DNA from: Calditrichota bacterium
Lineage (GTDB): Bacteria; Calditrichota; Calditrichia; RBG-13-44-9; J075
Direction: 5' to 3'
Assembly (NCBI GenBank): GCA_024275555.1
Contig: JAJRYW010000332.1
Location: 1-38,315 of the forward strand
DNA: 38,315 bases
Below, piece by piece: positions 6,405 through 20,519 of the stretch. The position numbers were made by a program, and so were the translations under genes. Numbering within the stretch: position 1 is the first letter of the stretch; each line of letters opens with the position of its first letter. The notes beneath the pieces were generated by a model. It saw only the letters and a list, made by a program, of their open reading frames with translations, was not told the origin of the DNA and ran no database searches.

Positions 6405-7595
6405 TCAGCCGGTTTGAGCGGTTTGATAAGCGGCAGCAAATGCCTGACCAATGTGCTCGATCTGCTCCGATGTGTGACCGGCACTCATACTGCAGCGCAG
6501 CAAAGCGCCGCCATCGGGCGTGGCCGGCGGCAGCACCAGGTTGACGTACACACCGTGTTCCACCAGTCGATTCCAGATGGCCAGGGCTTCGACTTTGTCT
6601 TCCTGCCTGATGGCGATAATGGGACTGGATTCCGGTCCCAGCGAAAGACCCAGGTTCTGCAGCTTTTGATAAAGCATGTCGGCATTCTTCCAGAGGCGGC
6701 GGCGCAACTCCGGTCGCGTGCGCAAAATATTTAATGCCTTGCGTGTCGAGGCGATGATCCCCGGTGACGACGATGCAGTGAATACGTAGGGCCGGCTTGC
6801 ATAGCGCACCAGGTCCAGTTGCCGATGGTTGCTGACGCAAAACCCGCCGATGGTGCCCAGGCTTTTACTGAAAGTGCCGACGATAAAGTCCGTCTCATCT
6901 TCCATACTGGTCTCCTCGGCAAGTCCCCGCCCGTTTTCGCCAAGAACGCCCAGGGAATGGGCCTCGTCTACCAGCAGATAAGCGCCGTATTTGCGTTTTA
7001 CCGCGGCGATGTCCGCCAGGGGCGCACGATCTCCCAGCATGCTGTAAAGGCCTTCCACAACAATCAGGACATTTGTGTTGCGTTTCGCAAGCCGTCGCAG
7101 CCGTTTTTCCAGATCATTTACATCGTTGTGCCGAAAGCGAATGACTTCGGCGCTTCCCAGGCGGCATCCATCATAAATGCTGGCATGGCAGTCCGCATCC
7201 AGCAGGATGACCTCATCGGGACCCACCAGGGTGGAGAGCATCGCCAGGTTGGCAATATAGCCGGTGGAAAAGACAATCGTATTGCGGTATCTAAAAAAAT
7301 CCGCCAACTCCTTTTCCAGGGCCACATGGCCTGAAAAGGTTCCATTGGCCATCCTGGATCCGGTGGTGCCGGTCCCCGCCCGGCGGGTGGCCTCGCAGGC
7401 GGCCTTGATACAATCGGTATCAAACGAAAGCCCCAGATAATTATTGCTGCCGGCCAGGATCATGCGACGGCCGTTGACAACAGCTTCTGTGGCCGAAATA
7501 ATCTCTTCCATGACGATATTGAAAAAGGCACTGCATTGCTGTTCAATTGATTGACGGGCAGCTGCCAGCGGCTGGAATTTATCGAAAATATTCAT
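6405..7595 (-). CDS. spt: Serine palmitoyltransferase (alpha-oxoamine synthase, PLP-dependent)
   Basis: GSNNYLGL, GTTGSRMANG, DADCHASIYDG, DEAHSLG and GTFSKS (PLP Lys) resemble Sphingomonas-type SPT. The acp/FAAL/CerR-like/bCerS-like neighbours favour SPT over BioF/Kbl. Confidence 0.87.
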   Translation of the reverse strand: MNIFDKFQPLAAARQSIEQQCSAFFNIVMEEIISATEAVVNGRRMILAGSNNYLGLSFDTDCIKAACEATRRAGTGTTGSRMANGTFSGHVALEKELADFFRYRNTIVFSTGYIANLAMLSTLVGPDEVILLDADCHASIYDGCRLGSAEVIRFRHNDVNDLEKRLRRLAKRNTNVLIVVEGLYSMLGDRAPLADIAAVKRKYGAYLLVDEAHSLGVLGENGRGLAEETSMEDETDFIVGTFSKSLGTIGGFCVSNHRQLDLVRYASRPYVFTASSSPGIIASTRKALNILRTRPELRRRLWKNADMLYQKLQNLGLSLGPESSPIIAIRQEDKVEALAIWNRLVEHGVYVNLVLPPATPDGGALLRCSMSAGHTSEQIEHIGQAFAAAYQTAQTG

Positions 7596-7618
7596 TGTCA
7601 GCCATCCTCGTTCAATTT

Positions 7619-7846
7619 TTAGATTTGCAGAACAAGGTCCTCAACGGTACGTACATCCGGTAGGATATTTAACGGAATAGAGATATCAAAGCGGTCTTCC
7701 ACGATTTCCAGAATCTTCATGACTTTTAGTGAATCAAGGCCCAGTTCGCCCACCAGATCCGTCTCCGGCCTGATTGCATATCCCTCCGGAACAAATGATT
7801 GGAGGATTTGGTAAATCTGTTGCAACATGTTTCCGTTTGCCTGCAT
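7619..7846 (-). CDS. acp: Acyl carrier protein (sphingolipid-dedicated type)
   Basis: 75 aa, acidic, LGLDSL phosphopantetheine motif, directly upstream of spt. Confidence 0.92.
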   Translation of the reverse strand: MQANGNMLQQIYQILQSFVPEGYAIRPETDLVGELGLDSLKVMKILEIVEDRFDISIPLNILPDVRTVEDLVLQI

Positions 7847-7896
7847 AACCTTTCATTTCCTTCCTTCGACCTTCGACATTTATACACAGCCGTGAT

Positions 7897-8838
7897 TTAC
7901 ACCCCGGTGTGCCACTGCAAAGTGCGCTGCAGACCCTCGGCCAGCAGGATTCGGGGAGTCCAGCCGGTACTTGTGCTCAGGGCCCCATTATCGCTGATCC
8001 AGTCGGTATGCTGCAGCTCACGAATTTTCCCGGGGGTTAGCATGGGTGCATAACCGAAAGCCCGGGCGGAGACCAGGTTAAGCATGGCGATCAGTTTTGC
8101 CAGGATCAGCGGGACCCTTATGCAAACCACGGGTCTGTCGCCTCTCAGGTGTCTGGCCGTGGCGATTACATCATGCCAGGAGTATCCGCCGGGTTTTCCA
8201 TCATGCAGCTCAAACGTGCGGCCCTGACCGTTGTTGCAATTCAGCCAGCGTACAATACCCTCTACCAGGTCTTCCACAAAAATCAGAGAAAAACGGCCCT
8301 GGCCGGACCCCGGCAGCGGAGCAACGCCCCTTGCCATCCGGCGCCAGACAGGCAGCAGCTCCCGATCGCCCGGGCCATATACCGCACATGGCCGAAAAAC
8401 GGTCCATGGCATTTTAGCAGATTCAGCGGCCAGTACCTCCTCTGCCAATCGTTTGCTGGCAGCGTAAGGAGATAGCTGAGGTTCCCGGGCTGCCAGCGAT
8501 GACATCAATAAAAAACGCGGCGCCGGGTGTTGTTCGGTCGCCGCTTGTACCAATTGTGCCACGCCATTTACATTTACATGATTGAATTGCGCCTGGGTGG
8601 CTCCGCGCACCGTGCCGGCGCAATGTACTATAGTATCCACTCCGCGGACCAGCTGCAGGAGACTTTGATGGTCTTCAAGGTCGCCCTCTATCCATTCGGC
8701 GGGAAGGCCGGCGGGCCGTTTGGAAGCCGATGCAGGGCGGAACAGAGCGCGGATATGCCAGCCGTTGGATGTCAATCGTCGTATCAATGCGCCGCCGATA
8801 AATCCCGTACCCCCGGTTAAGGCTAACGTGCGAGGCAT
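7897..8838 (-). CDS. cerR: NAD-dependent epimerase/dehydratase family protein, ceramide reductase (CerR)-like
   Basis: TGGTGFIG, SSLAAREPQLSPYAASK (YxxxK), VYGPGD. Its position between the acyl ligase and acp-spt matches the Caulobacter sphingolipid locus. Confidence 0.75.
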   Translation of the reverse strand: MPRTLALTGGTGFIGGALIRRLTSNGWHIRALFRPASASKRPAGLPAEWIEGDLEDHQSLLQLVRGVDTIVHCAGTVRGATQAQFNHVNVNGVAQLVQAATEQHPAPRFLLMSSLAAREPQLSPYAASKRLAEEVLAAESAKMPWTVFRPCAVYGPGDRELLPVWRRMARGVAPLPGSGQGRFSLIFVEDLVEGIVRWLNCNNGQGRTFELHDGKPGGYSWHDVIATARHLRGDRPVVCIRVPLILAKLIAMLNLVSARAFGYAPMLTPGKIRELQHTDWISDNGALSTSTGWTPRILLAEGLQRTLQWHTGV

Positions 8839-9010
8839 GGAGCTCTCCCATCAGACGCATTTTTAAACGATTTATTCATCCGCCTTCACGTTCAAACAGG
8901 GCGAAAACCTGATCTGCAAGCTGAACAAAAAAGGCGTTCGGCAGTGATTTCCGCTGCTTCACCCGTCTTTGATTCATCGGTTATGCTTGTTTGTTGTATC
9001 AAATTCAAGG

Positions 9011-10792
9011 TTAGACAGCCCGCTGGCGGAGCGTTGCGGCGTAAAGGTCTACGCTGGGTTCTTTTGATAGTTTGGCAGAGATCCGTTTCAGATACTCTTT
9101 GCGAGCTCCCGAGCGGGACAGCTTGCCGGACGTCGTTCTGGGTAAGGTATTGCGAGGCACGAGTTCAATCAGACAGTCAATGCCAAACTCCTTGCGTACC
9201 AGGCTGTGTAAACGCTCACGCAATTCAGCGCGCTTCTTTTCATCTGATTCACGGCACTGGACCATCATAACGGCCTGCTCCTGCCCATCCTGGCCGGGCA
9301 CCGAAAAGGACGAGGCATCCCCCGTACGTACTTCGGATTGCTGTTCCGCCACATACTCCAGGTCCTGGGGCCAGATATTGCGACCGTTGATGATGATCAG
9401 GTCCTTTTCACGCCCTGTAATTGCGAGGCTGTTTCCAATGCGATAGGCCAGGTCGCCGGTATTCAGCCAGCCCTCAGGAGATAAAACTTCCCGGGTGGAT
9501 CTGAGATCGCTGAAGTAACCGGACATGACGCTGGGTCCCCGGACATAGAGGGTTCCACAGTGCCGTTCCGGCAGCACCCGCCCCCGGGTATCTCTGATTT
9601 CCACTTCGTAACCTGGTAGCGGTGCTCCGCAATTAATAAAGGTATGTGAGGGTGTCGTCTCGTTGTCGTGAGCGGGATGCAGGGGCAGGGCTTTTTGCTG
9701 TTCAGCAAGCGCTGTGCGCTCCACATGATCGACATCGATTCCCTGGCCCAGGGGGGCAAAGCTTACCGCCAGGGAACATTCCGCCATACCATAGCAGGCT
9801 ACGTATGAACGTCGGTCAAACCCGCTGGGTGCTAAAAGACTGGCAAATTTATCAAGCGGATCGGTGCGAATTGTTTCCGCACCGACGCCGGCAAGACGCC
9901 AACTGCTAAGGTTGAACTTATCTGTTTCATTTTCCCGAATGCGGTGGGCGCACAATTCGTAACCAAACGGCGGACTGATGGACAGGGTCGCTTGATTTTG
10001 GGAAATCAGGCTCAGCCACATCCGCGGACGCATGGCAAAATCCCGGGTACTCAGGAAATCCACCGACAGCTGAGCCGCCATGGGGGACAACACCAGGCCG
10101 ACGAGTCCCATATCATGGTAATAGGGAAGCCAGGATACCGCCCGGTCACCGGGCCGAACCTGGATGCCGTATTTAAGAATAGCGAACAGGTTGCTCAGCA
10201 CAGCTTTCTGGGTGATCATCACGCCCCGGGGAAATCGAGTGCTGCCGGAAGTGTACTGCAGGTAGGCCACCTCGTTTGGTTGAGAGGGTCGCAACCGGGT
10301 ATTGGGTTCCATCAGATCGTAATAGTCCTGTGGAGTGCCGATAAAACGTAATTTTAATCCCTGGGCGGCTTCCGTCAGGTAGGGAAGAAAGTCCTCGGAG
10401 GCCATGGCAATTTCAGCCTGGCAGATTGACAGCAGTCTTTCCAATTGGGAGACATATGCCTGGCGGCCACCCAGGTGGATTGAAGCCGGCAGCGGAACGG
10501 GAATCAAACCTGCGTACTGACAGGCGAAAAAGAAACGCATAAAGTCAGGATGGGTTTCCGCCACCAGGGCTACGCGCGCACCGTGGTTAATTCCCAGGTC
10601 CATAAAACGGCGTGCCAGCGACTGGGCGTCTTTCTGTAATTCTGAGTAGGGCAGCCGTGCGTATAATTTTCCTCCACCGGTATAAAAATTATACCCGGTT
10701 TTTCCCCGGGCAGCGTAGTCGAGTGCTTCTGCTAGCGTAGAAAAATCTGCAATTCGTAACGGCAGATCATTAGCGGCCGGTGTAGCATCCAT
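9011..10792 (-). CDS. Fatty acyl-AMP ligase / acyl-ACP synthetase
   Basis: YLQYTSGSTRFPRG (A3), SWLPYYHDMGL, YGMAE, TGDL, GREKD, LPRTTSGK. AAGGAGG RBS before ATG 10792. Confidence 0.9.
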   Translation of the reverse strand: MDATPAANDLPLRIADFSTLAEALDYAARGKTGYNFYTGGGKLYARLPYSELQKDAQSLARRFMDLGINHGARVALVAETHPDFMRFFFACQYAGLIPVPLPASIHLGGRQAYVSQLERLLSICQAEIAMASEDFLPYLTEAAQGLKLRFIGTPQDYYDLMEPNTRLRPSQPNEVAYLQYTSGSTRFPRGVMITQKAVLSNLFAILKYGIQVRPGDRAVSWLPYYHDMGLVGLVLSPMAAQLSVDFLSTRDFAMRPRMWLSLISQNQATLSISPPFGYELCAHRIRENETDKFNLSSWRLAGVGAETIRTDPLDKFASLLAPSGFDRRSYVACYGMAECSLAVSFAPLGQGIDVDHVERTALAEQQKALPLHPAHDNETTPSHTFINCGAPLPGYEVEIRDTRGRVLPERHCGTLYVRGPSVMSGYFSDLRSTREVLSPEGWLNTGDLAYRIGNSLAITGREKDLIIINGRNIWPQDLEYVAEQQSEVRTGDASSFSVPGQDGQEQAVMMVQCRESDEKKRAELRERLHSLVRKEFGIDCLIELVPRNTLPRTTSGKLSRSGARKEYLKRISAKLSKEPSVDLYAATLRQRAV

Positions 10793-10937
10793 AGCAACTA
10801 TAGCCTCCTTGTTTAAATCAAGTCCGCGCAGGCGATTCACTCCCCCAAGAATCATCTGCTCAACTTAAAATCTGCAGCCTATCCCCTGATCTTCATCCTT
10901 TGCCATTTCAATTCAGGGCAGTGCTGCCGATGGTTGG

Positions 10938-10966
10938 GCAATACCTGATTTGCAATTAAATGTCAA
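10938..10966 (-). promoter_or_regulatory. Candidate sigma-70 promoter for the FAAL-cerR-acp-spt gene string
   Basis: Minus strand TTGACA, 17-nt spacer, then TATTGC (weak -10). Confidence 0.35.
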
Positions 10967-11626
10967 CTTCCGTACATCGCAATCCGGCTTAAATGGGTAT
11001 ACTACCGCAAAAGATGTTTTTTTTTGCGATAGCATGCCTGCTCATTTTCGATCATTCCGGGGGTTAATTTTACACATATAGATCGTTTAAGAGAGCGCCA
11101 AATCTTACAATAGACAAATGCCGCGTCTGCGGGGACGTTCGAACGCAAACCTTTATCACCTGCGGGTTAAGAGTCGTGACCGAAACGCAGTAAAGGCCGT
11201 GTTTTGTCGTCCTGCCGAATTTTTCGGCTCCTGCCGATTGCCATATTTTAGTAGAAAAATTACTGGGTTAACCAAAAAAAACTACAATTTTAAAAAAGCC
11301 TACCATGTATTTTTGGAACTGTAAAGTAATTGTCTTAAATATTTTAAAAAAATTTAAAGTTAAGATGCCAAAATTATTTAATTAATCAGTAATATCGTTA
11401 GCAGTCAGGAAAATTTAATGTCGATAATTTCAATTAACCCTGAACCTGAAATCGATTACAAGGAAATATGAAAAATTCTTCAAACAGTAATTATCTATTC
11501 GGGTTTGTCAATAGCGAATTTTCTGAATGCCCGGTGCGCAACACACAACCCAGTTTTCAGGTAATAGTGCACCGTTGAAAGATCCACAATCATTCGAACC
11601 CGTGAACGCTTGCCATGAGATCGCCG

Positions 11627-12424
11627 TTACCGGTCGCACAATATCTTTTCCACGAGTTGCCAATCGCCGGGCGAATCGACATCTATGGCTGCTTCCGGGA
11701 ATGGCATGACCACGGCACCCGCTTTAATTCCCATACGTTGCGAAATCCGGCCTAAAGCTTCAGTGAGGGACAAATGTCTCAGTAGATAACGCAGGACCGT
11801 TGACCACCCCAAAATCGTAATCATACGCAGGGGGTTTTTACGCCGGGTTTCGATGCTACGCCAGAAATCCGCCGCCAGCCGCGCCTGCGGGGTCAGGAAG
11901 GCAAACAGGTTACAGCCGCAGTAAGCCCCATCCTGCAAGCGAATGGCGGTTCTGCGGGTTTCGGGATAGGCGGCTTGCACCACTTCATGCAAAGCTACCC
12001 CCACCACGACGTCACAATCCGTCGTCTGCGCCCGGGAACAGAAATAATCCACAATACGGGTGTTTAGCAGGGCATGGTCGGCGGTGGTCAAAAGAATGGG
12101 GGTTTCGTCCGCCAAGGATTCGAGGACATGGAGGGCGCTCGCACTTGGGGTTGCCTGATTTTCACTCCACTCGACCCTGCCCGAGGTGATCAGCTGCCTC
12201 AGGTCCGGCTCCTGTTCAAGGATAGATCTGGGGGGGCCGCAAAGGATGCGGGTGTTTATCTGGGGTGATGCGGCCAGGGTAGCCAGCACGCGCAAGACCA
12301 TCGGTATGCCCCCAACAGGGATCATGGCTTTATAGCGAGCACCGGCGGCTTCAATCAGGGGATCTTTCGCTCCGCGGTCTGCGGCTAGTACTATTGCAGT
12401 AAACGCGGTCTGCGGATTGTGCAT
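11627..12424 (-). CDS. MobA-like NTP transferase (nucleotidyltransferase; CpgD-like by context)
   Basis: AIVLAADRG N-terminal nucleotide-binding loop, YKA..VGG.PM, TADHALL, C-terminal DVD. Confidence 0.8.
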   Translation of the reverse strand: MHNPQTAFTAIVLAADRGAKDPLIEAAGARYKAMIPVGGIPMVLRVLATLAASPQINTRILCGPPRSILEQEPDLRQLITSGRVEWSENQATPSASALHVLESLADETPILLTTADHALLNTRIVDYFCSRAQTTDCDVVVGVALHEVVQAAYPETRRTAIRLQDGAYCGCNLFAFLTPQARLAADFWRSIETRRKNPLRMITILGWSTVLRYLLRHLSLTEALGRISQRMGIKAGAVVMPFPEAAIDVDSPGDWQLVEKILCDR

Positions 12425-12442
12425 AGGCCCTTAGTCCAAAAA

Positions 12443-12795: not shown

Positions 12796-12840
12796 AAATT
12801 TTTTCCGAGCGTCGTCTCGGAAAAGGCTTAGAGGCTCTAA

Positions 12841-14010
12841 TCAAAGTTTTTTGTTGTAAATGCGATAGGTTTTATAGACCCTGCCGCCGATTGATTCGAT
12901 AATATTGCGCATTCGCATGTTGTCCTCCAGTATCCAGGAAAGCTCAACTTCCTTGATGCCGAGTTTCCGGCCAGGTTCCAGAGTTGAGGCAATCATCATG
13001 AATGCGAGCGCGGCCCCCAGCAGGTTGTCATGGTAACGGCACCGTACGCCCATTAGGGGAATGCGCGCGGATTGGGGGTATTTTACCTTCAGTCGCCACA
13101 GCATTTTGAGCCAGCCGAAGGGCAGAAGCCTTCCATTGAGATCCCGGATGACCTCATTGATGTTCGGCAGAACCACGAGAAAGGCAGCGGGCTCTCCGTT
13201 CACCTCGGCAATTTTGACCAGTTTTTCATTGGCCAGCATTTTCAGATCCTTTCCCAAATGCTCGAATTCTACGGCGGTGAAGGGAACAAAGCCCCAGTTT
13301 TGTGACCAGGCATCGTCGTGAATGCTCTTGATAACTGCTAGTTCGGCGCTAAAATTGGATTTTTGAAGCGACCGGATGCGCACATTTTTTTTCGCCCTTT
13401 TGGTGACGGTCTGCATCGCGGCGGAAGGTTTAAAATCCGCATCGATAATGTACGCCAGCAGGTCCTTTTCTTTGGTGTACCCATTTTCAGCCAGGCGATT
13501 GCCATAATATGGCCGGGCATGGCCCATCATCAGCGACGGTGGGGTGTCAAAACCGTCCACCAGCAATCCAAGCTCCTGGTTGATGGATAGATTAAACGGC
13601 CCGCTGATGCGTTGCATTCCCTGGTTGCGCAGCCAGGACTCGGCCGTATCCAGCAATGCCTGAAATGTCCGGGTATTGTCTTCTGCTTCCAGCATCCCGA
13701 AAAAGCCGGTGGCATTCCGGTACCGTTCGAGATAAAGACTATCTTTCTGAGCACTGATTCGGCCCACGGGCCTGCTATCGCGGTAGGCCAGCCAGGAACA
13801 ATAGGCGGCATGCTTGAAATAAGGATTTTTCGGTGAAAGGTGCTCACGCCTTTCCAGCACCAGCGGGGGAACCCACATGGGATCGTCCCCATAGAGGGAC
13901 CATGGCAGGCGAATAAATTCATTCAGCGCACGGCGCCCCCCCACTTTGATAATTTGCAATGATTCATGACGGTGATGTCCGGGGGGCTGATGGTGTTGAA
14001 CAGGTTTCAT
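12841..14010 (-). CDS. bcerS: GNAT-fold N-acyltransferase, bacterial ceramide synthase (bCerS/YghO)-like
   Basis: LPWSLYGDDPMWVPPL, GRISAQ, FFGMLEA, GPFNLSINQELGLLVDGF, WSQNWGFVPFT, ELSWILEDN and KTYRIY are characteristic of the YghO/bCerS family, and the gene is in an spt neighbourhood. Confidence 0.8.
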   Translation of the reverse strand: MKPVQHHQPPGHHRHESLQIIKVGGRRALNEFIRLPWSLYGDDPMWVPPLVLERREHLSPKNPYFKHAAYCSWLAYRDSRPVGRISAQKDSLYLERYRNATGFFGMLEAEDNTRTFQALLDTAESWLRNQGMQRISGPFNLSINQELGLLVDGFDTPPSLMMGHARPYYGNRLAENGYTKEKDLLAYIIDADFKPSAAMQTVTKRAKKNVRIRSLQKSNFSAELAVIKSIHDDAWSQNWGFVPFTAVEFEHLGKDLKMLANEKLVKIAEVNGEPAAFLVVLPNINEVIRDLNGRLLPFGWLKMLWRLKVKYPQSARIPLMGVRCRYHDNLLGAALAFMMIASTLEPGRKLGIKEVELSWILEDNMRMRNIIESIGGRVYKTYRIYNKKL

Positions 14011-14101: not shown

Positions 14102-14245
14102 TATCGAAAACAGCTAAATAAAATGGAAAAGATCAGCCGGCTGCAGCGAGCACCGGATTTGATTGTATAAATAGAACATTTTGATAATTAAAATATTAAG
14201 AAATGTTTATTTTTTAAGTAATAAACTCTTTACAGGCCGTATTTT

Positions 14246-14258
14246 TTGCATTATGCAA
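14246..14258. promoter_or_regulatory. Palindrome TTGCAT-T-ATGCAA, candidate MarR operator
   Basis: Perfect 6-1-6 inverted repeat in the AT-rich divergent region between bcerS and marR. Confidence 0.35.
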
Positions 14259-14390
14259 TACGTCATTAAAAAGATAGTTCGCTTCCGGTAAAACTTCGTA
14301 ATCCCTTAAAAACATCTATATTTTAAGTATGTTGTAGAAATTCCGAACCATCTAATTAGTCAGGTGAAAAGGGTCTGCAGAGGAGCACGG

Positions 14391-14858
14391 ATGAATAAAA
14401 ACACGGAAATATTGATTTATGAACTGGCTTTCCGGGTGCGTTTATACATAGCATCCAGGGTTCTGGATAAAAATGTAGCTGACTTGACTGATCGTGAAAG
14501 CCTCATACTTGAACTGATCGGGATGCAGGGCCGGATGAGTATATCGGAAATTGGAAAATTGTACCCAAAGGTGAGTAACAGCACCATTTCCACGACGATT
14601 ACAAAGCTATGGAAAGACAAAAAACTTGTTGATAAAAAGATATTGCCGGAAAATCAACGGGTAACAACCGTAAGTTTAACTGAAAAAGGCGAACAGGTAT
14701 TGGCGGAAATAAGAAGCTCCCAGTCGCATTTTTTCAGCACAATCACCCAATCCCCGGGCCTGATTTCCGATCAAGTCGAACATTTTCAGCGGCTTTTAAC
14801 AAATGCCATTGTTTTTTTTGATAAAACCCTCGGGCTGAAAGCTGACAAGGGGCCCTGA
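14391..14858 (+). CDS. MarR family winged-helix transcriptional regulator
   Basis: LTDRE..IL..I, SISEI, STISTTITKL..KKLV, ENQRVTTVSLTEKG pattern. GAGGAG RBS before ATG 14391. Confidence 0.85.
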   Translation: MNKNTEILIYELAFRVRLYIASRVLDKNVADLTDRESLILELIGMQGRMSISEIGKLYPKVSNSTISTTITKLWKDKKLVDKKILPENQRVTTVSLTEKGEQVLAEIRSSQSHFFSTITQSPGLISDQVEHFQRLLTNAIVFFDKTLGLKADKGP

Positions 14859-14869
14859 ATGATAAAAAA

Positions 14870-15955
14870 TTGATCATCGACCGTTACATAATCCGTGAAA
14901 TCAGCAAGCCCATGGCGGCTATATGCGCGGTTCTGGTAGCCATCTTTGCCAGCTACAGTGCCGCACAGTATCTTGCTGATGCTGTCAGTGGTCTGTTTCC
15001 GCCGGGAGCGTTGTTGTTGATGCTGGTGCTGAGAATCGCCATCGCCCTGGAGGTGCTGCTGCCCACAACCCTGTATCTGTCTGTTGTGATTGCTCTCGGA
15101 CGTATGCACAGAGACTCCGAAATGATTGCCCTGTCATCCTGTGGTGTCGGAACTTCCCGGGTACTGAAGTCCGTTTTCTATTTTGCATTCGCCATTGCCA
15201 TACTGGTAGCCGGTCTATCGATCTATGTCCGTCCGTGGGCCTTTAAAGAAGTTTACCGGTTACAGGCATATGCTAAGAGCGACTTTGATATTTCCCGGAT
15301 GGAAGCCGGAAATTTCTATGAAATAAAATCAGATCGTCTCGTTATATTTGCGGAAAAGGTAGACCACAAAGCTAATCGGGCGGAAGGGGTTTTTATCCGC
15401 AGCCAGGATGGACAAAACCTGCAGGTAATTTTTGCCAAGCAGGTCTATCAGCGTACCGAAGCAGTGCATGGCAGGCGGGTGTTACTATTGCAGGATGGAT
15501 ATCTCTACGAGTTTACGCGTAGCGGCGAAAAGGGTAAAATCACTCAATTTCAGCGAGTGACCTATTTAATATCGCCCAATGAGTCGATCGCACTTAAGTA
15601 TAAACGTAAAGCGGCCTCCACCGGGCATTTGTTTCGCTCACGCAAACTCAAGGATATCGCAGAATTCCAGTGGCGGCTATCCACACCCTTGTCGACCCTG
15701 CTTCTGGCACTACTCGGTGTGCCTTTGAGTCGAACGACTCCACGCCAGGGAAAGTATGTAAAGGTGGTCGCGGCTGTCTTGATTTTTGCAGTTTACTACA
15801 ACATTACCATCGTAGCCAAGAATTGGATAGAAAAAGGTGTTTTAAACGCCGTTCCTGGAATCTGGTGGGTTCAGGTCTCACTGGCAGGACTTGTCTTGGT
15901 GTTGCTGTGGCGTACGGGCGATGTGTTCGTACGCCGTGGTACAAAAATGACATAA
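14870..15955 (+). CDS. lptF: LptF/YjgP family ABC permease (paralogue in the sphingolipid locus)
   Basis: IIDRYIIREI N-terminus, DSEMIAL..CG, AEFQWRLSTP, 3 TM + periplasmic domain + 3 TM layout. Confidence 0.88.
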   Translation: MIIDRYIIREISKPMAAICAVLVAIFASYSAAQYLADAVSGLFPPGALLLMLVLRIAIALEVLLPTTLYLSVVIALGRMHRDSEMIALSSCGVGTSRVLKSVFYFAFAIAILVAGLSIYVRPWAFKEVYRLQAYAKSDFDISRMEAGNFYEIKSDRLVIFAEKVDHKANRAEGVFIRSQDGQNLQVIFAKQVYQRTEAVHGRRVLLLQDGYLYEFTRSGEKGKITQFQRVTYLISPNESIALKYKRKAASTGHLFRSRKLKDIAEFQWRLSTPLSTLLLALLGVPLSRTTPRQGKYVKVVAAVLIFAVYYNITIVAKNWIEKGVLNAVPGIWWVQVSLAGLVLVLLWRTGDVFVRRGTKMT

Positions 15956-15998
15956 TCGTTCCGGGGAACAAGCTATTGCGGCCAGGCCGGTACAACAG

Positions 15999-17066
15999 AT
16001 GAAAACGATTGATCGTTATATTGCCAAGCATACTATCTGGGGCGTTCTGTCGGTTTTATTTTTATTCGTTATTCTCTTCAGTTTTCTGGAACTTTTAGCG
16101 CAAATAAACGACATCGGAAAAGGTAATTACCAGATGCTGGATGTTTTTGTTTTTACGGGCTATACGGTGCCTAAACGAATAGTGGATTTGATGCCGGTGA
16201 GTATCCTGCTGGGCAGTATTGTTGCCTTGGGATTGTTGGCCGACCACAATGAGCTTACCGCCATGCAGGCTGCCGGTGTGTCGGTTGGAAGAATTTGCAG
16301 GTCTGTTCTTTCCGCGGGTGCCCTGCTTCTGCTGATTGTCTTTGTGCTGGCGGAATTCCTTGCCCCGCCAATGGAACAATATGCTCGAATCCGGCGTTCA
16401 AAGGCGATTTATGGTCAAGGTATATTTCTGACGAAAAACGGGTTCTGGGCTCGCCACGGCCATTCCTTCGTTCACGTCGGCAAAATCTTTTCCGGTGGTA
16501 TGGTGACCGATGTCGAAATTTTCGAACATGACAACCAGGGACGTCTAACCAGTTTTATTCATGCGCGCGGGGCAACGGTGCTTGACAATAGCCAGTGGTT
16601 GCTCAAGGGTATTAAACAAATCATCTTTTCAGAGCAAGGCATCAAAACACAAAATCCACCCAGCCTCATGTTAAATTCATTCCTGAGTCTTGAGCAGGTC
16701 GGTATTCTTGAGCTTCCCCCCGCCAGTCTCTCGATCTCCGATTTATACAAATTTGTGCAGGGATTGCGGCAGAGAGGACAGAATGAACAGCGATATGCGT
16801 TGGCATTTTGGCAGAAGCTAAGTCTTCCGATTACGAATCTGGTCATGGTGATGCTTTCCCTGGCATTTATATTCGGACCTACGCGTTCAATAACGGCCGG
16901 ACGCAGGATCGCTATGGCCTCCCTGGTGGGGATTGCCCTTTATCTGGCGTATCAGATAATCGGGCATCTGGGGTTATTGTTTGAGCTGCCGCCGGCAATC
17001 ACCACCCTGACACCGGTGCTGGCTGTGCTGGGGGTGGCTCTAAAGATGCTGAAGCGTGCTGCCTAG
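15999..17066 (+). CDS. lptG: LptG/YjgQ family ABC permease
   Basis: MKTIDRYI, HNELTAMQAAGVS, EFLAP, FWQKLSLP; immediately follows lptF. Confidence 0.88.
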   Translation: MKTIDRYIAKHTIWGVLSVLFLFVILFSFLELLAQINDIGKGNYQMLDVFVFTGYTVPKRIVDLMPVSILLGSIVALGLLADHNELTAMQAAGVSVGRICRSVLSAGALLLLIVFVLAEFLAPPMEQYARIRRSKAIYGQGIFLTKNGFWARHGHSFVHVGKIFSGGMVTDVEIFEHDNQGRLTSFIHARGATVLDNSQWLLKGIKQIIFSEQGIKTQNPPSLMLNSFLSLEQVGILELPPASLSISDLYKFVQGLRQRGQNEQRYALAFWQKLSLPITNLVMVMLSLAFIFGPTRSITAGRRIAMASLVGIALYLAYQIIGHLGLLFELPPAITTLTPVLAVLGVALKMLKRAA

Positions 17067-17227
17067 ATCTGGAATGTCTGATTTGGAATGACGAATGTCG
17101 AATGTCGAATTAAGGCTATAATTTATCCAATCAATTATTCAACCCGCAAACTATTCAACGGGGTCTGGATTTGGGATTTAAGAATTATTGGTGCCTGGAC
17201 TTTTCCCGATTATGGATGCAACTGTAC

Positions 17228-18148
17228 TTAAATATCCATTTCCAGTTCGGGGATAAACCGCCGATTGTTCGGGGAATAGACGTGCACCTTCATGTGGATG
17301 CCCCAGCCGGTGGCATTGCGCCTGAAACGGTAGATGTGATACCGGGCCCGACGTTCCGGTCTGGGGTCTGAGGCGGAAGCTGACGGAATTCCGATGACGG
17401 GGATTTTTCCCATCGGCACCTCCAGCAGGGCTTGACAACTGCGATGGGCATGGCCGTGCAGTACCAGTTCTGCACCGCAGCGTTTCACAACCGAGCGAAA
17501 CCGGTCGGCATCCGTCAGGCGTTTCCGCCAACCAACCGTCGCGGCAACCGGTGGATGGTGGATTAACACGACGCGCAGCAGCTGTCTGCGTCCGGTTTCC
17601 AGCAGGATTTGTTCCAGCCGTTGCAGCTGGACCTTGCCGATGGTGCCGACGGCCAAAAGCGGGTTGACGGGCCGTGCGGTGCAAACACCGATTATGGCTA
17701 TTCGATCGCGTATTCGCAAGACAGGATAAGTGATCTCAGTATTTGTTCCCGGTGCTGTTCCGGGAGGTTTTTCGTCGCAAGCCATGTAGTCCGCCCAGTG
17801 GGCGAAAGTGTTTTCCCAGATTGTTTTAACATACATGTCGTGGTTGCCGGGAATCACCGTAACCTGCCAAGAGGGCCCCAGGCACTGGAGCCATTTTGCA
17901 GTCCGGCGAAATTCTTCGGTTCGGCTGAGGTGCGTCAGATCCCCGGTAATGACGATATGATCGGGATGGCCGCTTTTCAAATCCTGCTGCAAGACGGCGA
18001 GGATTTCGTTGCTGTACCCGGCGTGCCGATGCAGCCACCATTTCAGGTATCCAAACAGGCGTTTATTTAATAGCTCCGGCACACGGATACCGTCAGGGCA
18101 ACAGCAGTGGGGATCGGAAAAGTGGGCTAATGTGAATGTCTCATCCAT
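17228..18148 (-). CDS. Calcineurin-like metallophosphoesterase
   Basis: SDPH, TGDLT, PGNHD, HHP and HGHAH metal-binding motifs. Confidence 0.9.
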   Translation of the reverse strand: MDETFTLAHFSDPHCCCPDGIRVPELLNKRLFGYLKWWLHRHAGYSNEILAVLQQDLKSGHPDHIVITGDLTHLSRTEEFRRTAKWLQCLGPSWQVTVIPGNHDMYVKTIWENTFAHWADYMACDEKPPGTAPGTNTEITYPVLRIRDRIAIIGVCTARPVNPLLAVGTIGKVQLQRLEQILLETGRRQLLRVVLIHHPPVAATVGWRKRLTDADRFRSVVKRCGAELVLHGHAHRSCQALLEVPMGKIPVIGIPSASASDPRPERRARYHIYRFRRNATGWGIHMKVHVYSPNNRRFIPELEMDI

Positions 18149-18194
18149 TGCTTGCCATGGTTTTTATGCAGGGTTAGGCCCTTATCGGGCTTTA

Positions 18195-18214
18195 TCTGAC
18201 AACATGTTGTCAGA
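18195..18214. promoter_or_regulatory. Perfect 20-bp palindrome TCTGACAACATGTTGTCAGA, candidate operator
   Basis: Exact dyad symmetry in the divergent region between the phosphoesterase and the lipid kinase. Confidence 0.45.
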
Positions 18215-18504
18215 AACTGAAGGTTTCAGGTGTTCGGGTTTCAGCAATTAAAAATTCAAAATAGTAAATCACAAATACCAAACGGATAATCCGCCGGCAT
18301 TTGGGCCATCGCCAGATTGAATATTTAAGCAATTCTACCTGCTTAAATCTTCCTTTCCAGATTGTCCGGATTAGAGTTTACAAGCGGGATGGTTAAACAT
18401 ATAGTATTAAGAACTTTTCCGCAACGCTGCATTGTTTTTATCCGTTGTTTCGCAAAAGATAGCCGTTCAGAGGTTCAGGGTTCAACTTAAATATAAGTGA
18501 GATT

Positions 18505-19560
18505 ATGGCCAAGATCTGCTTTGATAATTCGTCTCTAAAAGCTGTGACGGATACCGGTGATGCACCGGCGTCCATCGCAAATCGGTCGTTTAGCGGGGGG
18601 GTGTTGAAAGTGGGTGTGCTCAGCAATCCGTTTAGCGGCGCCAATCGAAACGGCCTGGGTCCCGTTAAAAAAGTGCTGACCGGGTATCCGCAAGTCCTGC
18701 ATTGTGAAGTTCAGACACCGGCGGATATAAAACTGGCGCTGGCCGGTTTCGCAGAACGGCAGGTGGATATCCTGGCGGTAAACGGGGGCGACGGGACCGT
18801 CCATGCGGTGTTGACCGCCCTCTTTAATCACAGGCCGTTTGTCCCACTGCCCCTGCTGGCTCTTTTGCCGGGAGGTACGGCTAATATGCTGGCCAAAGAC
18901 TTGGGCTTGAAAGGATCCCCGGGAAAAGCTTTGCGAAGGTTGCTGGGCTGGGCCTCCACCGGGAATGCAGATGCCGTCGTCGAACAGCGGGCGGTGTTGC
19001 AGGTACAGGCGCCTGGGCTTTGTGAACCGCTTTTCGGATTGTTTTTCGGTGCAGGCCTAATTTATCATGGAATCCGGTTTTTTCACGACAGGGTCAAAAC
19101 CCTGGGCCTGCGCGGCCGATCGGCCCAGGCGTTGATTGTGGGCCGCTACCTGCTGGCGCTCGCGGCAAAAAACAGGGATGTTGTCAGTCCGGTGTCCGTG
19201 GACATCGGACTGGATGGAAAACGGACGGAGGGCCAGCAATGCCTGCTGGTGCTTATCAGCACCCTTGAAAAGCTCATTTTAGGGTTTCGCCCTTACTGGG
19301 GCTGTGAAGAGGGGCCGTTGCGGTTCACCGCCGTGTGTGCCCGCCCGCGGCGCGTGTTGCGGACGGTGCTTGGCCTAACATGTGGTCTAAACAGCCGGCA
19401 CCCCGGGACGGAACACGGCTACCTCAGCCATAACGCCTATGCGATAGATCTAAATTTTCAAGGCGGCTTTGCCCTGGACGGAGAATTGTACATGCCGGCT
19501 GTCGGCTGCGGTCCCGTGGTGTTGCAAAAAGGCGGCCAGGCACCATTTTTGCGGTTGTAA
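18505..19560 (+). CDS. Diacylglycerol/sphingosine kinase family protein (ceramide kinase CpgB-like)
   Basis: LSNPFSG, GGDGT, LPGGTANMLA and LDGE DAGK-family motifs. The true start may be slightly downstream. Confidence 0.85.
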   Translation: MAKICFDNSSLKAVTDTGDAPASIANRSFSGGVLKVGVLSNPFSGANRNGLGPVKKVLTGYPQVLHCEVQTPADIKLALAGFAERQVDILAVNGGDGTVHAVLTALFNHRPFVPLPLLALLPGGTANMLAKDLGLKGSPGKALRRLLGWASTGNADAVVEQRAVLQVQAPGLCEPLFGLFFGAGLIYHGIRFFHDRVKTLGLRGRSAQALIVGRYLLALAAKNRDVVSPVSVDIGLDGKRTEGQQCLLVLISTLEKLILGFRPYWGCEEGPLRFTAVCARPRRVLRTVLGLTCGLNSRHPGTEHGYLSHNAYAIDLNFQGGFALDGELYMPAVGCGPVVLQKGGQAPFLRL

Positions 19561-19562
19561 CC

Positions 19563-20519
19563 ATGCAGATACCATTTGAAATTGTCGAGCAGATCCGCAG
19601 GAAAACCTCGCATTCGGCCTCCCCGCCTATGCAGGCTCTAATCACCAGTATTATGTCGCGCTACGGTGAAGCTGTCCAGGCGGTTTTATATTACGGGTCC
19701 TGCCTGCGCAAAGGCGATGAACTCGATGGGATCGTAGACCTGTATGTGCTGGTGGACACATACCGGTCCGCTTATCCCGGACGTCTGCTGCCGATGGTTT
19801 TTAATAAAATACTGCCCCCCAATGTTTTTTATTTGGAAATACCCTTTGAAGGTGGCATGGTGCGAACCAAGTATGCGATTTTTTCCGTCACTGACTTTCA
19901 GCGTGGCGTATCCAGACGCTGGTTTCATTCCTACGTATGGGGGCGATTTGCCCAACCGGCGGGCCTTTTGTATGCTCGCACTGCTGAAGTCGAGGACCGG
20001 GTGATAAACGCCCTGGCCCAGGCCGCTGTGACCTTTATTACCCGTGTGCTTCCCCGGGCGGCAGACAGGTTTTGCGCCAGGCAATTGTGGTGCCGTGGTC
20101 TTTTACTCAGCTACCGTGCCGAACTGCGGGCGGAACGGTCGGATAAGGTGGCCCGCCTGTATGATGCCTCGTCGGAACACTACGAGCAAATAACCCGTGT
20201 GGCCCTGGTCGGGGTTCCGTTTCCCGTTAAGATGGAGCCCGATTCGAAGCCGGTCAGTTACCGGGCCCGCATTCCTCTTCGCGTTCGTCGGTTCAGCCGT
20301 TTCACGTGGGCCGTCAGGTCGCTGCAGGGCAAATTGCTTTCAATCCTGCGTCTTTTCAAAGCCTGGTTCACGTTCCGCGGGGGGATGGATTACATTCTCT
20401 GGAAGGTGGAACGGCATTCAGGGGTTACCGTGGAGGTGACTCCGCGGCTGCGTCGGTTTCCGCTGTTGGCGGTTTTCGTACTCTCCTGGCGGCTTTACCG
20501 ACGTGGAGCTTTCCGTTAG
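19563..20519 (+). CDS. Tam41/Mmp37-like nucleotidyltransferase (putative lipid-phosphate cytidylyltransferase)
   Basis: YYGS...DLYVLVD (Pol-beta NTase GS + DxD-like), TKYAI, WGRFAQP and LSYRAELRAE..KV parallel Tam41 conserved blocks. It starts 2 nt after the kinase stop. Confidence 0.65.
   Translation: MQIPFEIVEQIRRKTSHSASPPMQALITSIMSRYGEAVQAVLYYGSCLRKGDELDGIVDLYVLVDTYRSAYPGRLLPMVFNKILPPNVFYLEIPFEGGMVRTKYAIFSVTDFQRGVSRRWFHSYVWGRFAQPAGLLYARTAEVEDRVINALAQAAVTFITRVLPRAADRFCARQLWCRGLLLSYRAELRAERSDKVARLYDASSEHYEQITRVALVGVPFPVKMEPDSKPVSYRARIPLRVRRFSRFTWAVRSLQGKLLSILRLFKAWFTFRGGMDYILWKVERHSGVTVEVTPRLRRFPLLAVFVLSWRLYRRGAFR

Follow-up and report, generated by a model that had tools for sequence, protein, structure and literature searches.

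Among the closest described systems is the ceramide diphosphoglycerate (CPG2) locus of Caulobacter crescentus (CC_1168-CC_1152), which comprises spt, acp, cerR, an acyl-ACP synthetase, bcerS, cpgA-D, CC_1153, CC_1158, and lptF2/G2/C2. Genetic work in Caulobacter has addressed these gene positions (Zik, 2022; Olea-Ozuna, 2024; Uchendu, 2026, preprint; and the papers on CpgB and CpgD). As described by Olea-Ozuna (2024), CC_1153 and CC_1158 mutants are affected in the CPG-to-CPG2 step, and Beta- and Gammaproteobacterial versions of the cluster occur in Nitrosomonas, Azotobacter, and Pseudomonas luteola. Spt-like proteins accompanied by bCerS/CerR have also been reported from Black Sea MAGs of 38 phyla, with the Desulfobacterota named as likely producers (Ding et al., 2024). 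That survey is described as screening Spt, bCerS, and CerR only, and its main text has 0 occurrences each of "ceramide kinase" and "phosphoglycerate".

The window analyzed here, a stretch of 38,315 nucleotides (contig JAJRYW010000332.1), holds a real and conserved gene cluster for ceramide synthesis, a phosphate head group, and outer-membrane export (Table 1). With the window proteins as tblastn queries, nine Desulfobacterota-labeled loci (L006-L014) were found to carry these genes in unchanged order, and because of this recurrence the arrangement is not due to chance. A Hyphomonas locus of the Caulobacter type matches the window gene for gene, in an order equal to CC_1165-CC_1152 as published (Olea-Ozuna, 2024), which bears out the resemblance to the Caulobacter sphingolipid locus proposed in the first-pass annotation; likeness to Caulobacter proteins was judged through this Hyphomonas MAG locus and published descriptions. 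The blocks common to the window, L006-L014, and Hyphomonas are ligase-CerR-ACP-Spt, CpgC-CpgB, LptG/F, and bCerS-nucleotidyltransferase. Open reading frames, Pfam, and NCBIfam recovered spt, acp, the ligase, the CerR-like and bCerS-like genes, the kinase, the phosphoesterase, and lptF/lptG where that annotation had placed them. The cluster is wider than the 6405..20519 first assigned to it, as an ABC exporter, a radical-SAM/LpxL-like pair, and a CMP-ulosonic-acid block adjoin it. A MarR gene inside the cluster was missing from the earlier gene list.

Table 1. Features of the sphingolipid cluster and its flanks, in window coordinates.
Feature	Position	Strand	Evidence or remark
Aldehyde dehydrogenase	19..1527	-	Pfam/NCBIfam, under equivalog cut-offs
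SDR of ulosonic-acid block	1757..2569	-	Pfam/NCBIfam, under equivalog cut-offs
NeuB-like synthase	2566..3738	-	Pfam/NCBIfam, under equivalog cut-offs
KdsC-like phosphatase	3881..4411	-	Pfam/NCBIfam, under equivalog cut-offs
MsbA-like half-size ABC exporter, candidate sphingolipid flippase	4543..6363	-	PF00664 + PF00005; outside first-pass coordinates
Spt, serine palmitoyltransferase	6405..7595	-	NF047599 628 bits, cut-off 500
Dedicated acyl carrier protein, acp	7619..7846	-	PF00550, E 2.7e-10; DSL phosphopantetheine motif
CerR-like NAD(P)-dependent reductase (SDR)	7897..8838	-	PF01370; GxxGxxG, YxxxK motifs
Fatty acyl-AMP ligase (acyl-ACP synthetase, AasR/ACP-synthetase position)	9011..10855	-	PF00501; NF006624 788 bits, cut-off 600
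AT-rich 770-bp spacer	10856..11626	.	probably promoter region of ligase-to-ABC operon
CC_1153-type nucleotidyltransferase (NTP_transf_3)	11627..12424	-	PF12804; PDB 2dpw, E 2e-22
bCerS-like N-acyltransferase (bacterial ceramide synthase position)	12841..14010	-	faint GNAT match, E 0.014
MarR-family regulator, divergent from bCerS	14364..14858	+	PF13463/PF01047; same place in L006-L010
LptF-type permease in cluster (LptF2-like)	14870..15955	+	TIGR04407 345 bits, cut-off 230
LptG-type permease in cluster (LptG2-like)	15999..17066	+	TIGR04408 344 bits, cut-off 240
Calcineurin-like metallophosphoesterase	17228..18148	-	PF00149; kept in 8 Desulfobacterota loci
CpgB-like lipid (ceramide) kinase	18505..19560	+	PF00781 (DAGK_cat); GGDG motif
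CpgC-like protein, Tam41 (phosphatidate cytidylyltransferase) family, 318 aa	19563..20519	+	homology, family profile
Radical SAM protein, possible cluster member in window's subclade	20616..21917	-	PF04055
LpxL-like acyltransferase, paired with radical SAM gene	22109..23050	+	PF03279

The alpha-oxoamine synthase of the cluster passes the SPT model, and among NCBIfam models it fits the betaproteobacterial one best. Its fold and PLP motifs are common to BioF and Kbl, and it scores 341 and 320 bits with their respective models, so that an enzyme of either kind, making no long-chain base, could be considered; both scores fall under the cut-offs of those models. Among solved structures the bacterial SPTs match best (2x8u, 424 bits; solved SPTs approximately 420), compared with 217 bits for KBL and at most 178 for BioF, and the motifs HASIYDG, DEAH, and GTFSKS align with solved relatives. 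With ACP, CerR-like, and bCerS-like genes flanking it in every related locus, a BioF or Kbl identity has a nearly negligible probability. The CerR-like protein is 33% identical to its Hyphomonas counterpart (E 4e-32), and lies between ligase and ACP in both loci. The ligase is 41.5% identical to the Hyphomonas protein and 60-80% identical to those of the Desulfobacterota loci. The bCerS-like protein was found in 16 related loci, at 40-43% identity to the protein in the Hyphomonas bCerS position and 54-79% to those of the Beta/Desulfobacterota loci; a search for relatives among solved structures found none.

The head-group genes are more divergent in part, the CpgB-like kinase sharing only 24-25% identity with the kinase beside CpgC in Hyphomonas. 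Two nucleotidyltransferases had been claimed for the cluster. The NTP_transf_3 gene is one, and is 41% identical to the Hyphomonas gene directly after bCerS; its assignment as cpgD was rejected in favor of the CC_1153 type by this match and position. The second can only be the 318-aa CpgC-like protein, which has no Pfam match of its own, PF09139 included, and is Tam41-like by family. It is 36-38% identical to the protein in the Hyphomonas CpgC position and has 3769 homologs at E ≤ 1e-5. PF09139 was found in 16 of 20 such homologs, and a profile built from the 20 matches Tam41 (PDB 6ig2, E 0.002) over profile positions 87-212. Similarity to the mitochondrial phosphatidate cytidylyltransferase Tam41/Mmp37 is thus weak and partial, and the putative substrate here is ceramide-1-phosphate instead; on this likeness, the CpgC-like family may activate a lipid phosphate in a CTP-dependent manner. 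The metallophosphoesterase may take the role of CC_1158, by analogy.

The pathway had been called near-complete. For CPG2 this does not hold, as the window is without CpgA and CpgD, with no remnant detectable by tblastn (best E-value 0.14), and Pfam found no LptC2 homolog in it. CpgA and CpgD were likewise not found in the two closest relatives of the window (G037 and G039), and lie within the cluster in G038, G040, and G041 (Desulfopila aestuarii DSM 18488 and two other MAGs). Both could sit elsewhere in the host genome. CpgD-like genes fill the slot of the 770-bp spacer in L007, L010, L011, and L014. In the window, this spacer has no ORF of at least 70 aa and no Rfam match, its conservation with L006 and L008 is weak, and it probably serves as promoter region for the operon running from the ligase to the ABC gene. 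Genes of the CC_1153/CC_1158 type are kept in the window without CpgA/CpgD, of which a simple "CPG only" reading gives no account.

The lack of CpgA and CpgD in the window, G037, and G039 would also suit a different product, in which the same backbone carries a non-glycerate head group and some other alcohol receives the CDP-ceramide-type intermediate. This alcohol could be ethanolamine, glycerol, inositol, or an ulosonic acid from the adjoining NeuB-like/KdsC-like/CMP-transferase block, with the radical SAM and LpxL-like enzymes possibly acting as further lipid modifiers. Genes at 19..4411 (minus strand), downstream of the ABC gene, form the putative start of this CMP-ulosonic-acid block. The spt-ABC-KdsC-like-NeuB-like linkage recurs in L006 and L008, which keep the order of the block, and in L007 it extends to the KdsC-like gene, where that locus ends; in G037 and G039 the block goes on with CTP_transf_3 and a transketolase-like gene. 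Among five relatives, only G037 and G039 share the radical SAM/LpxL-like pair (radical SAM copies 87-91% identical), and in L008 a radical SAM gene lies inside the cluster, between phosphoesterase and kinase. Marine sediments are reported to contain phospho-sphingolipids whose head groups are PE, PG, PI, or unidentified glycosylated moieties and whose producers are not known (Sollich, 2017). On the other hand, L007 (from G038) has a KdsC-like gene beside the ABC gene and carries CpgA and CpgD as well, which shows that one gene set does not rule out the other. The window yielded no transferase suited to such a head group, the pattern comes from three related genomes only, and the block may be part of a neighboring LPS or capsule region, given the sugar-modifying genes that come after it in G039. 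A non-glycerate head group is therefore a tentative alternative, on the doubtful side, to a glycerate-type one.

LPS machinery merely adjoining the ceramide genes could also be proposed for LptF/LptG, the MsbA-like ABC exporter, and the KdsC-like and LpxL-like proteins. Several LPS-type families do lie within 20 kb, both permeases exceed curated LPS-permease cut-offs, and the searched Methylotenera and Gallionellaceae genomes have a single LptF/G pair, sister of the embedded clade. However, four of the five relatives (G037, G039, G040, and G041) have four LptF/G matches, i.e., two pairs, and the pair outside the cluster makes up a Desulfobacterota group of its own in the tree. The embedded pair keeps its place in seven of the related clusters (L006, L007, L009, L011, L012, L013, and L014). 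G037 and G039 carry an LpxL-like copy of the window type (68-83%) and a second copy elsewhere (~50%). Caulobacter is described as requiring its locus-embedded LptF2/G2 during production of anionic sphingolipid (Uchendu, 2026, preprint). An ordinary LPS assignment is accordingly quite improbable, and a role for these proteins with the sphingolipid is preferred. The ABC gene begins 41 nt past the spt stop, no terminator-like site was found between the two on that strand, and an ABC gene also follows spt in L006, L007, L008, and L013.

In the trees, the embedded LptF/G group with proteobacterial LptF/G (supports 100/99 for G and 98/94 for F), and the window's LptF belongs to a group made up of copies embedded in such clusters, with betaproteobacterial LptF as its sister and other Desulfobacterota LptF placed separately. 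The window's LptF/G is, as judged from these trees, a second pair of proteobacterial ancestry, and for this reason the horizontal transfer earlier raised as possible is likely; the cluster seems to have been gained by a sulfate-reducer-like lineage from proteobacteria. Vertical descent from an ancestral Desulfobacterota cluster, with many losses and with Proteobacteria as recipients, would agree with its presence in several families of Desulfobacterota (as judged by record titles) and with a quick bCerS tree, in which Beta and Gamma sequences nest among Desulfobacterota and which leaves the direction of transfer unresolved. It is unlikely given the position of the embedded LptF/G away from the native Desulfobacterota pair and the betaproteobacterial fit of Spt. 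The distribution is also patchy: of 151 genomes sampled from the order of G037, 21 were found to carry bCerS, and no more than 11 of the 21, the window type, reach at least 55% identity.

The host had been taken as Desulfobacterales-like, and a placement check agrees: DnaK and GatA of the contig are 84-86% and 78-82% identical, respectively, to those of the closest Desulfobacterales/Desulfosarcinaceae MAGs, making the contig Desulfosarcinaceae-like by these markers. Both proteins differ from those of the order assigned to its MAG, the MAG encodes another copy of each, and by tetranucleotide composition the contig stands out as an outlier. For these reasons, the contig is probably misbinned and foreign to the organism forming most of the MAG.

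These data favor, with a probability of roughly 0.78, the view that the Desulfosarcinaceae-like contig carries a sphingolipid island of Caulobacter/proteobacterial type gained by horizontal transfer, with a proposed route from ceramide through an anionic head group to export. The backbone steps are supported by homology: the acyl-AMP ligase would load a fatty acid onto the dedicated ACP, and Spt would condense serine with the acyl chain to 3-ketosphinganine. The bCerS-like acyltransferase is predicted to attach the N-acyl chain and the CerR-like protein to reduce the ketone, giving dihydroceramide. By analogy with Caulobacter, the CpgB-like kinase would then form ceramide-1-phosphate, which the Tam41-like CpgC homolog and CTP could convert into a CDP-ceramide-type intermediate. 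The CC_1153-like nucleotidyltransferase and the metallophosphoesterase may complete one anionic head group only, so that the product would be ceramide phosphoglycerate or a comparable phosphodiester; with CpgA and CpgD missing, a second phosphoglycerate would not be added. Judging from gene context, the exporter of the MsbA-like type may flip the sphingolipid, the cluster LptF/LptG, powered by the cell's LptB, may extract it towards the outer membrane, and MarR is probably the cluster regulator.

Measured against known systems, the novelty at gene level is modest, as earlier publications already cover the widespread occurrence of CpgB, LptF2G2 embedded in the locus, and Spt/bCerS/CerR in MAGs of Desulfobacterota. 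Extension of sphingolipids to anaerobic sulfate reducers, as first claimed, is likewise not new at this level, the Desulfobacterota having been named by Ding et al. (2024). Like C. crescentus, by way of Hyphomonas and the published descriptions, the window has a ligase-cerR-acp-spt operon, bcerS followed by a CC_1153-type nucleotidyltransferase, adjacent cpgB/cpgC, a phosphoesterase, and embedded LptF/LptG. Unlike C. crescentus, it lacks CpgA, CpgD, and LptC2, has an MsbA-like ABC gene after spt and MarR inside the cluster, is flanked by the radical SAM/LpxL-like pair and the CMP-ulosonic-acid block, and belongs to an anaerobic Desulfosarcinaceae-like lineage. The closest relatives outside the Desulfobacterota are the beta- and gammaproteobacterial loci of Methylotenera, Gallionellaceae, and Lysobacterales, with bCerS 46-55% identical to that of the window. 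In Methylotenera and Gallionellaceae the LptF/G pair lies outside the locus, unlike the window, whereas the Lysobacterales locus has bCerS-NTase-LptF-LptG-CpgC contiguous, with its LptF/G in the window's clade. The Black Sea Desulfobacterota MAGs, as described by Ding et al. (2024), share with the window the same three backbone genes, co-localized and in an anaerobic marine setting.

The window carries a genuine, well-conserved Caulobacter-type phospho-sphingolipid cluster, which belongs to a Desulfosarcinaceae-like lineage. Its genes were mapped from the open reading frame (ORF) listing and from family scans of the window's ORFs (Pfam and NCBIfam; see table), and an Rfam scan of the window gave no match. 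The gene inventory proposed by the first-pass annotation (spt, acp, an acyl ligase, cerR- and bcerS-like genes, a lipid kinase, nucleotidyltransferases, a phosphoesterase and lptF/lptG paralogs) is borne out, as the ORF and family map recovers it and the expected motifs are present in the acyl carrier protein (DSL), the reductase (GxxGxxG and YxxxK) and the kinase (GGDG).

Genes of the sphingolipid cluster and its surroundings, in forward-strand coordinates of the window
Feature	Coordinates	Strand	Remarks
SDR, then aldehyde dehydrogenase		-	after the NeuB-like gene; the latter reaches the contig end
KdsC-like phosphatase and NeuB-like synthase	within 2566-4411	-	3' of the ABC exporter gene
MsbA-like ABC exporter	4543-6363	-	ATG 41 nt past the spt stop
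Spt	6405-7595	-	NF047599, 628 bits (cut-off 500)
ACP	7619-7846	-	DSL motif
CerR-like SDR	7897-8838	-	PF01370; GxxGxxG and YxxxK motifs
Fatty acyl-AMP ligase	9011-10855	-	NF006624, 788 bits (cut-off 600); first in transcription order
NTP_transf_3 nucleotidyltransferase	11627-12424	-	upstream of the ligase
bCerS-like protein, 389 aa	12841-14010	-	faint GNAT match only
MarR		+	within the cluster, before LptF/LptG
LptF		+	345 bits, over the TIGR04407 cut-off
LptG		+	344 bits, over the TIGR04408 cut-off
Metallophosphoesterase	17228-18148	-	between LptG and the kinase
DAGK_cat kinase	18505-19560	+	PF00781; NGGDGT in sequence
CpgC-like protein, 318 aa	19563-20519	+	no Pfam match
Radical SAM protein	20616-21917		beyond the CpgC-like gene; followed by an LpxL-like acyltransferase gene
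DUF6951 protein	23061-23399		between the LpxL-like gene and an S49 peptidase gene; unrelated to the cluster
FlgM anti-sigma-28 factor	23836-24144		as DUF6951
DnaK	26468-28378
GatA	33015-34532

With the bCerS-like protein as query, 16 loci were obtained from 50 pattern matches in species-representative genomes. Going by the labels of these records, the closest relative is in a Desulfosarcinaceae MAG (79% identity), followed by two "delta proteobacterium" MAGs (72%), Desulfopila aestuarii DSM 18488 (61%), a Thermodesulfobacteriaceae MAG (58%), Gallionellaceae and Methylotenera (54-55%), Lysobacterales (46%), Bacteriovoracales (42%), two Hyphomonas (40-43%) and a Lachnospiraceae MAG (28%); relatives also occur in Desulfobacterales MAGs and Desulforhopalus. 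When 21 window proteins were compared with these loci by tblastn, the entire cluster was found in identical gene order in the Desulfobacterota-labelled loci L006-L014. The Hyphomonas locus L020 reads ligase-CerR-ACP-Spt, then on the opposite strand the CpgC-like gene and the kinase, then LptG/LptF, and continues with DUF2141, bCerS, NTP_transf_3, a CDP-alcohol phosphatidyltransferase, HAD and NTP_transferase. This order equals that of CC_1165 to CC_1152 of Caulobacter, as described by Olea-Ozuna et al. (2024); therefore, the 318-aa protein of the window is the CpgC homolog, its nucleotidyltransferase is of the CC_1153 type, and its kinase stands at the CpgB position.

The alpha-oxoamine synthase of the window belongs to the Spt family by score, structural relatives and motifs, and is predicted to form 3-ketosphinganine from serine and acyl-ACP or acyl-CoA. 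The first-pass annotation had named a BioF/Kbl-type enzyme as the finding that would speak against a sphingolipid locus. That identity is not borne out: the protein passes the SPT model, scores higher on it than on the BioF, Kbl and HemA models, and falls under the cut-offs of both BioF (341 bits, cut-off 426) and Kbl (320 bits, cut-off 460). Its nearest solved structures are bacterial serine palmitoyltransferases, with 2x8u at 424 bits versus 217 for Kbl and at most 178 for BioF. The segments HASIYDG, DEAH and GTFSKS, which we take to be the PLP-binding lysine and the His/Asp motifs, align with 2x8u over residues 3-389. The bCerS-like protein shares 40-43% identity (E 1e-86) with its counterpart in the bcerS slot of the Hyphomonas loci, and the order of the bCerS gene followed by the CC_1153-type nucleotidyltransferase gene is common to those loci and the window. 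Its GNAT evidence is a sub-threshold PF00583 match (E 0.014), and a search of solved structures returned no relative. As in Hyphomonas, the CerR-like gene lies between ligase and ACP (33% identity). The CerR-like protein begins at its Rossmann motif (residues 7-15), without an N-terminal extension; Caulobacter CerR is described as periplasmic in Uchendu (2024).

The source MAG, which is labelled Calditrichota, consists of 691 contigs (4.86 Mb) and is 98% complete and 5.2% contaminated. The window's DnaK shares 84-86% identity with those of three related genomes, G037, G038 (partial) and G039, and 60-70% with those of the MAG's GTDB order, in which 36 of the 37 genomes had a match; contig C367 encodes another DnaK, whose identity is at the level of the MAG's order. 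Similarly, the window's GatA shares 78-82% identity with Desulfosarcinaceae-like relatives and 54-55% with the MAG's order, and a second copy lies on C145; LptF/G is duplicated as well, on C364 and C322. Homologs of bCerS are present in 35 of the 37 genomes of the MAG's order and, the source MAG's own copy aside, are 39-45% identical to that of the window. In a tetranucleotide principal component analysis of the 207 contigs of at least 8 kb, the window's contig (C241) is the seventh strongest outlier, near C243, C501, C70, C32, C342 and C589. Because of the DnaK and GatA identities, the second copies, the bCerS types and the tetranucleotide composition, the most plausible reading of C241 is a Desulfosarcinaceae-like contig that was probably misbinned, and the duplicated genes together with its outlier status point to a chimeric bin. 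The first-pass annotation had suspected a Desulfobacterales-like host and proposed placing DnaK and GatA; with that placement carried out, its view holds for the contig but not for the MAG. The probable binning error would otherwise credit the pathway to the wrong organism.

Contig C568 of the same MAG bears a further Spt-bCerS pair, which differs from that of the window (L023, 1112-2906). The model that fits its Spt best is the CFB-type one, at 516 bits (cut-off 640, not reached), and this Spt shares 36% identity with the window Spt; its bCerS homolog (43%) is partial and runs off the contig end. The C568 type is found in 35 of the 37 genomes of the MAG's order, so the bulk organism appears to make sphingolipids by a different type of locus.

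Among the candidate head-group enzymes, the window kinase and its Hyphomonas counterpart share only 24-25% identity (E 5e-8 to 2e-13), and the GGDG motif that the window kinase carries is named in the CpgB paper. The kinase gene ends 2 nt ahead of the CpgC-like gene, whose product is 36-38% identical (E 4e-47 to 2e-49) to the Hyphomonas protein adjoining the kinase. Of 6374 candidates, 3769 proved homologous to the CpgC-like protein at E<=1e-5, and many of these homologs have a precomputed match to PF09139 (Tam41). PF09139 was matched at E<=0.1 by 16 of 20 aligned family members, the window protein itself giving no match, and a profile built from these 20 members reached the solved Tam41 structure 6ig2 (E 0.002). 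This link agrees with the remark of Olea-Ozuna et al. (2024) that CC_1161 carries a CDP-diacylglycerol-synthase-type domain. These similarities support, and do not prove, that the CpgC-like protein could activate ceramide-1-phosphate in a CTP-dependent manner. The NTP_transf_3 gene is not a cpgD: its product matches the CC_1153 type by position and by its 41% identity to the corresponding Hyphomonas protein.

The inventory and order are Caulobacter-like, but the description of the pathway as near-complete does not hold for ceramide diphosphoglycerate: CpgA (a CDP-alcohol phosphatidyltransferase) and CpgD (CTP:phosphoglycerate cytidylyltransferase) were not found in the window. For CpgA, the window has no PF01066 gene, and three CpgA-type queries gave tblastn E-values of at least 0.46; five CpgD-type queries gave at least 0.14. 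The LptC family had no match among the window ORFs scanned. In genome-wide searches of the relatives with Hyphomonas proteins as queries, CpgA and CpgD (38-41% and 45-50% identity, respectively) were found inside the cluster in G038, Desulfopila aestuarii (G040) and G041. Orthologs were not found in the closest relatives, G037 and G039, where the CpgD query gave only partial matches of 31%. A CpgD-like gene occupies the slot between the CC_1153-like gene and the ligase in L007 (from G038), L010, L011 and L014 (a Thermodesulfobacteriaceae MAG); in the window, L006 and L008, the same slot is a weakly conserved, AT-rich spacer of ~700 bp. The window's spacer, at 770 bp, holds no ORF of at least 70 aa and is read as a putative promoter region. 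Recent pseudogenization of cpgA and cpgD, which would have left decayed copies, is unsupported, because no remnant was found in the window, L006 or L008; in L006 and L008, tblastn with the relatives' CpgA and CpgD gave nothing at E<=1e-3.

Another contig of the MAG was considered as the place of the missing genes. This contig, C98, has CpgA-like and CpgD-like matches of 28-29%, which were rejected for the window's organism as weak and as lying on a contig with the MAG's bulk composition. C98 (L022, 2-5344) encodes a partial, weakly CpgA-like protein, a HAD hydrolase, a CpgD-like NTP_transferase and a radical SAM/SPASM protein, as well as a fused NTP_transf_3 and CDP-alcohol phosphatidyltransferase. 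Together, these genes could give the bulk organism a CDP-alcohol route to a lipid head group.

In Caulobacter, according to the CpgD paper, CpgD makes CDP-glycerate, which CpgA uses to add the second phosphoglycerate. Given these roles and the absence of both genes, the pathway of the window's subclade is predicted to end at a mono-substituted phospho-ceramide. The subclade retains the gene types of the CC_1153-type nucleotidyltransferase and the phosphoesterase, which this prediction does not account for: in Caulobacter, CC_1153 and CC_1158 mutants accumulate ceramide phosphoglycerate (CPG) and have lost or reduced ceramide diphosphoglycerate (CPG2). Since the roles of both enzymes are unsettled in Caulobacter, natural variants that lack CpgA and CpgD provide a comparative handle on them.

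An LptF/LptG pair lies inside the sphingolipid cluster in 7 related loci, and four of the five related genomes (G037, G039, G040 and G041) have four PF03739 matches each. With the window's LptF and LptG as phmmer queries, cluster-embedded Desulfobacterota pairs scored 339-551 bits, the embedded Lysobacterales pair 202-241, the single pairs of Methylotenera and Gallionellaceae 175-183, the other Desulfobacterota pairs 44-66, and the embedded Hyphomonas pair ~35. A maximum-likelihood tree was built from 38 sequences, excluding a partial LptG-like fragment of the source MAG (L004) and partial Lysobacterales fragments. The cluster-embedded copies of Desulfobacterota and of Lysobacterales fall into a single clade (LptG 100/99, LptF 95/92), which is sister to the betaproteobacterial pair (LptG 100/99, LptF 98/94), both lying among proteobacterial sequences; the other Desulfobacterota pair is set apart (LptG 98/94). 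Placement of the embedded Hyphomonas pair is unsure because of its long branches (about 2 changes per column). From this tree position and the separate other pair, the window's LptF and LptG appear to be a second pair of proteobacterial ancestry, which fits the LptF2/G2 idea of Olea-Ozuna et al. (2024) and the Uchendu 2026 preprint. The preprint states that the locus-embedded lptF2/G2/C2 of Caulobacter can be deleted only when anionic sphingolipids are not synthesized, and that LptF2/G2 bind LptB. The copies on C364 and C322 are not accepted as the housekeeping LptF/G of the window organism, as they probably come from the MAG's main organism.

The possibility of horizontal transfer, raised at first pass, is graded as likely: the cluster was likely transferred from a Beta- or Gammaproteobacterial lineage. 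Beside the LptF/G ancestry, this reading is based on the window Spt, for which the betaproteobacterial model is the best NCBIfam fit, on the gradient of declining bCerS identity across the related loci, and on patchy distribution, bCerS being found in 21 of 151 sampled genomes of G037's order (11 of 151 at 55% identity or above). A quick bCerS tree mixes Beta- and Gammaproteobacterial with Desulfobacterota sequences and leaves the direction of transfer unfixed. There is good evidence that the synthesis genes and those for Lpt-type export came from proteobacteria in a joint transfer; the presence of LptF/G of such ancestry in a different phylum suggests that lipid synthesis and its export travel as one transferable unit.

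The genes adjoining spt extend the cluster. The ABC exporter gene lies 3' of spt in L006, L007, L008 and L013, and the same-strand gap between the two in the window contains no terminator-like site. KdsC-like and NeuB-like genes come next in L006 and L008; L007 has the KdsC-like gene, after which the locus ends. In G037 and G039 (L036 and L037), the block goes on with an SDR, an aldehyde dehydrogenase, a CTP_transf_3 cytidylyltransferase and a transketolase-like gene. By these families it would constitute a CMP-ulosonic-acid-type pathway, inside which the window contig terminates; the window's NeuB-like and KdsC-like proteins do not reach the equivalog cut-offs of NeuB, PseI, KdsC or Kdn-9-P phosphatase. 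In L014 (4177-5280), a PLD-like (PLDc_2) gene, a 455-aa gene and a GFO/IDH/MocA oxidoreductase gene follow spt and replace the ABC exporter. The head-group or export genes adjoining spt thus differ between lineages.

On the other side of the cluster, the radical SAM/LpxL-like pair was detected in the window, G037 and G039 and in none of the other genomes searched; L008 has it between its phosphoesterase and kinase genes. A further LpxL-like gene (~50% identity) is present elsewhere in G037 and G039. Among named families, the radical SAM protein matches tetraether lipid synthase (Tes) best, but with 63 bits against a cut-off of 450 and over the radical SAM core only. This protein is 87-93% conserved in G037, G039 and L008, adjoining the LpxL-like gene, and the G037 and G039 matches contain stops within the aligned frame near the N-terminus.

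These neighbors (the ABC exporter, the radical SAM/LpxL-like pair and the ulosonic-acid block) allow a more extended reading, to which we give roughly one chance in eight. The pathway may have been rewired, with CpgA and CpgD lost and the radical SAM/LpxL-like and CMP-ulosonic-acid genes recruited. The product would be a new LPS-mimicking anionic sphingolipid, for instance an extra-acylated ceramide phosphate with a Kdo/Kdn-like sugar acid, exported by the MsbA-like flippase and the proteobacteria-derived LptF2G2. If true, this could explain some of the unassigned phospho- and glyco-phospho-sphingolipids of anoxic marine sediments.

In euxinic Black Sea MAGs of 38 phyla, Ding et al. (2024) report Spt-like proteins, whose genes frequently have those of bCerS and CerR close by; Desulfobacterota are counted among the likely producers, a claim repeated in a sediment follow-up. 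The CpgB paper calls CpgB broadly conserved over bacterial classes. Olea-Ozuna et al. (2024) describe a 17-gene cluster that occurs in Alpha-, Beta- and Gammaproteobacteria and, in their proposal, was passed between these classes. Phospho-sphingolipids with no assigned producer are reported from marine hydrothermal sediments in Sollich (2017). Within the sources accessible to the literature search, which did not extend to published supplements that may list this lineage, no experimental sphingolipid from a Desulfobacterota isolate was found; a search for Desulfopila sphingolipids found nothing. The cluster therefore offers a testable gene set for the phospho-sphingolipids of sulfate-reducer-like bacteria in anoxic sediments, where such lipids were measured. 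Desulfopila aestuarii DSM 18488 is cultured and has the full cpgA-D set within its cluster, making lipidomics feasible. The gene-content variant of the window's subclade is itself informative: it differs from the Caulobacter system in having neither CpgA nor CpgD, in an extra ABC exporter, and in its neighbors, the radical SAM/LpxL-like genes on one side and an ulosonic-acid block on the other.
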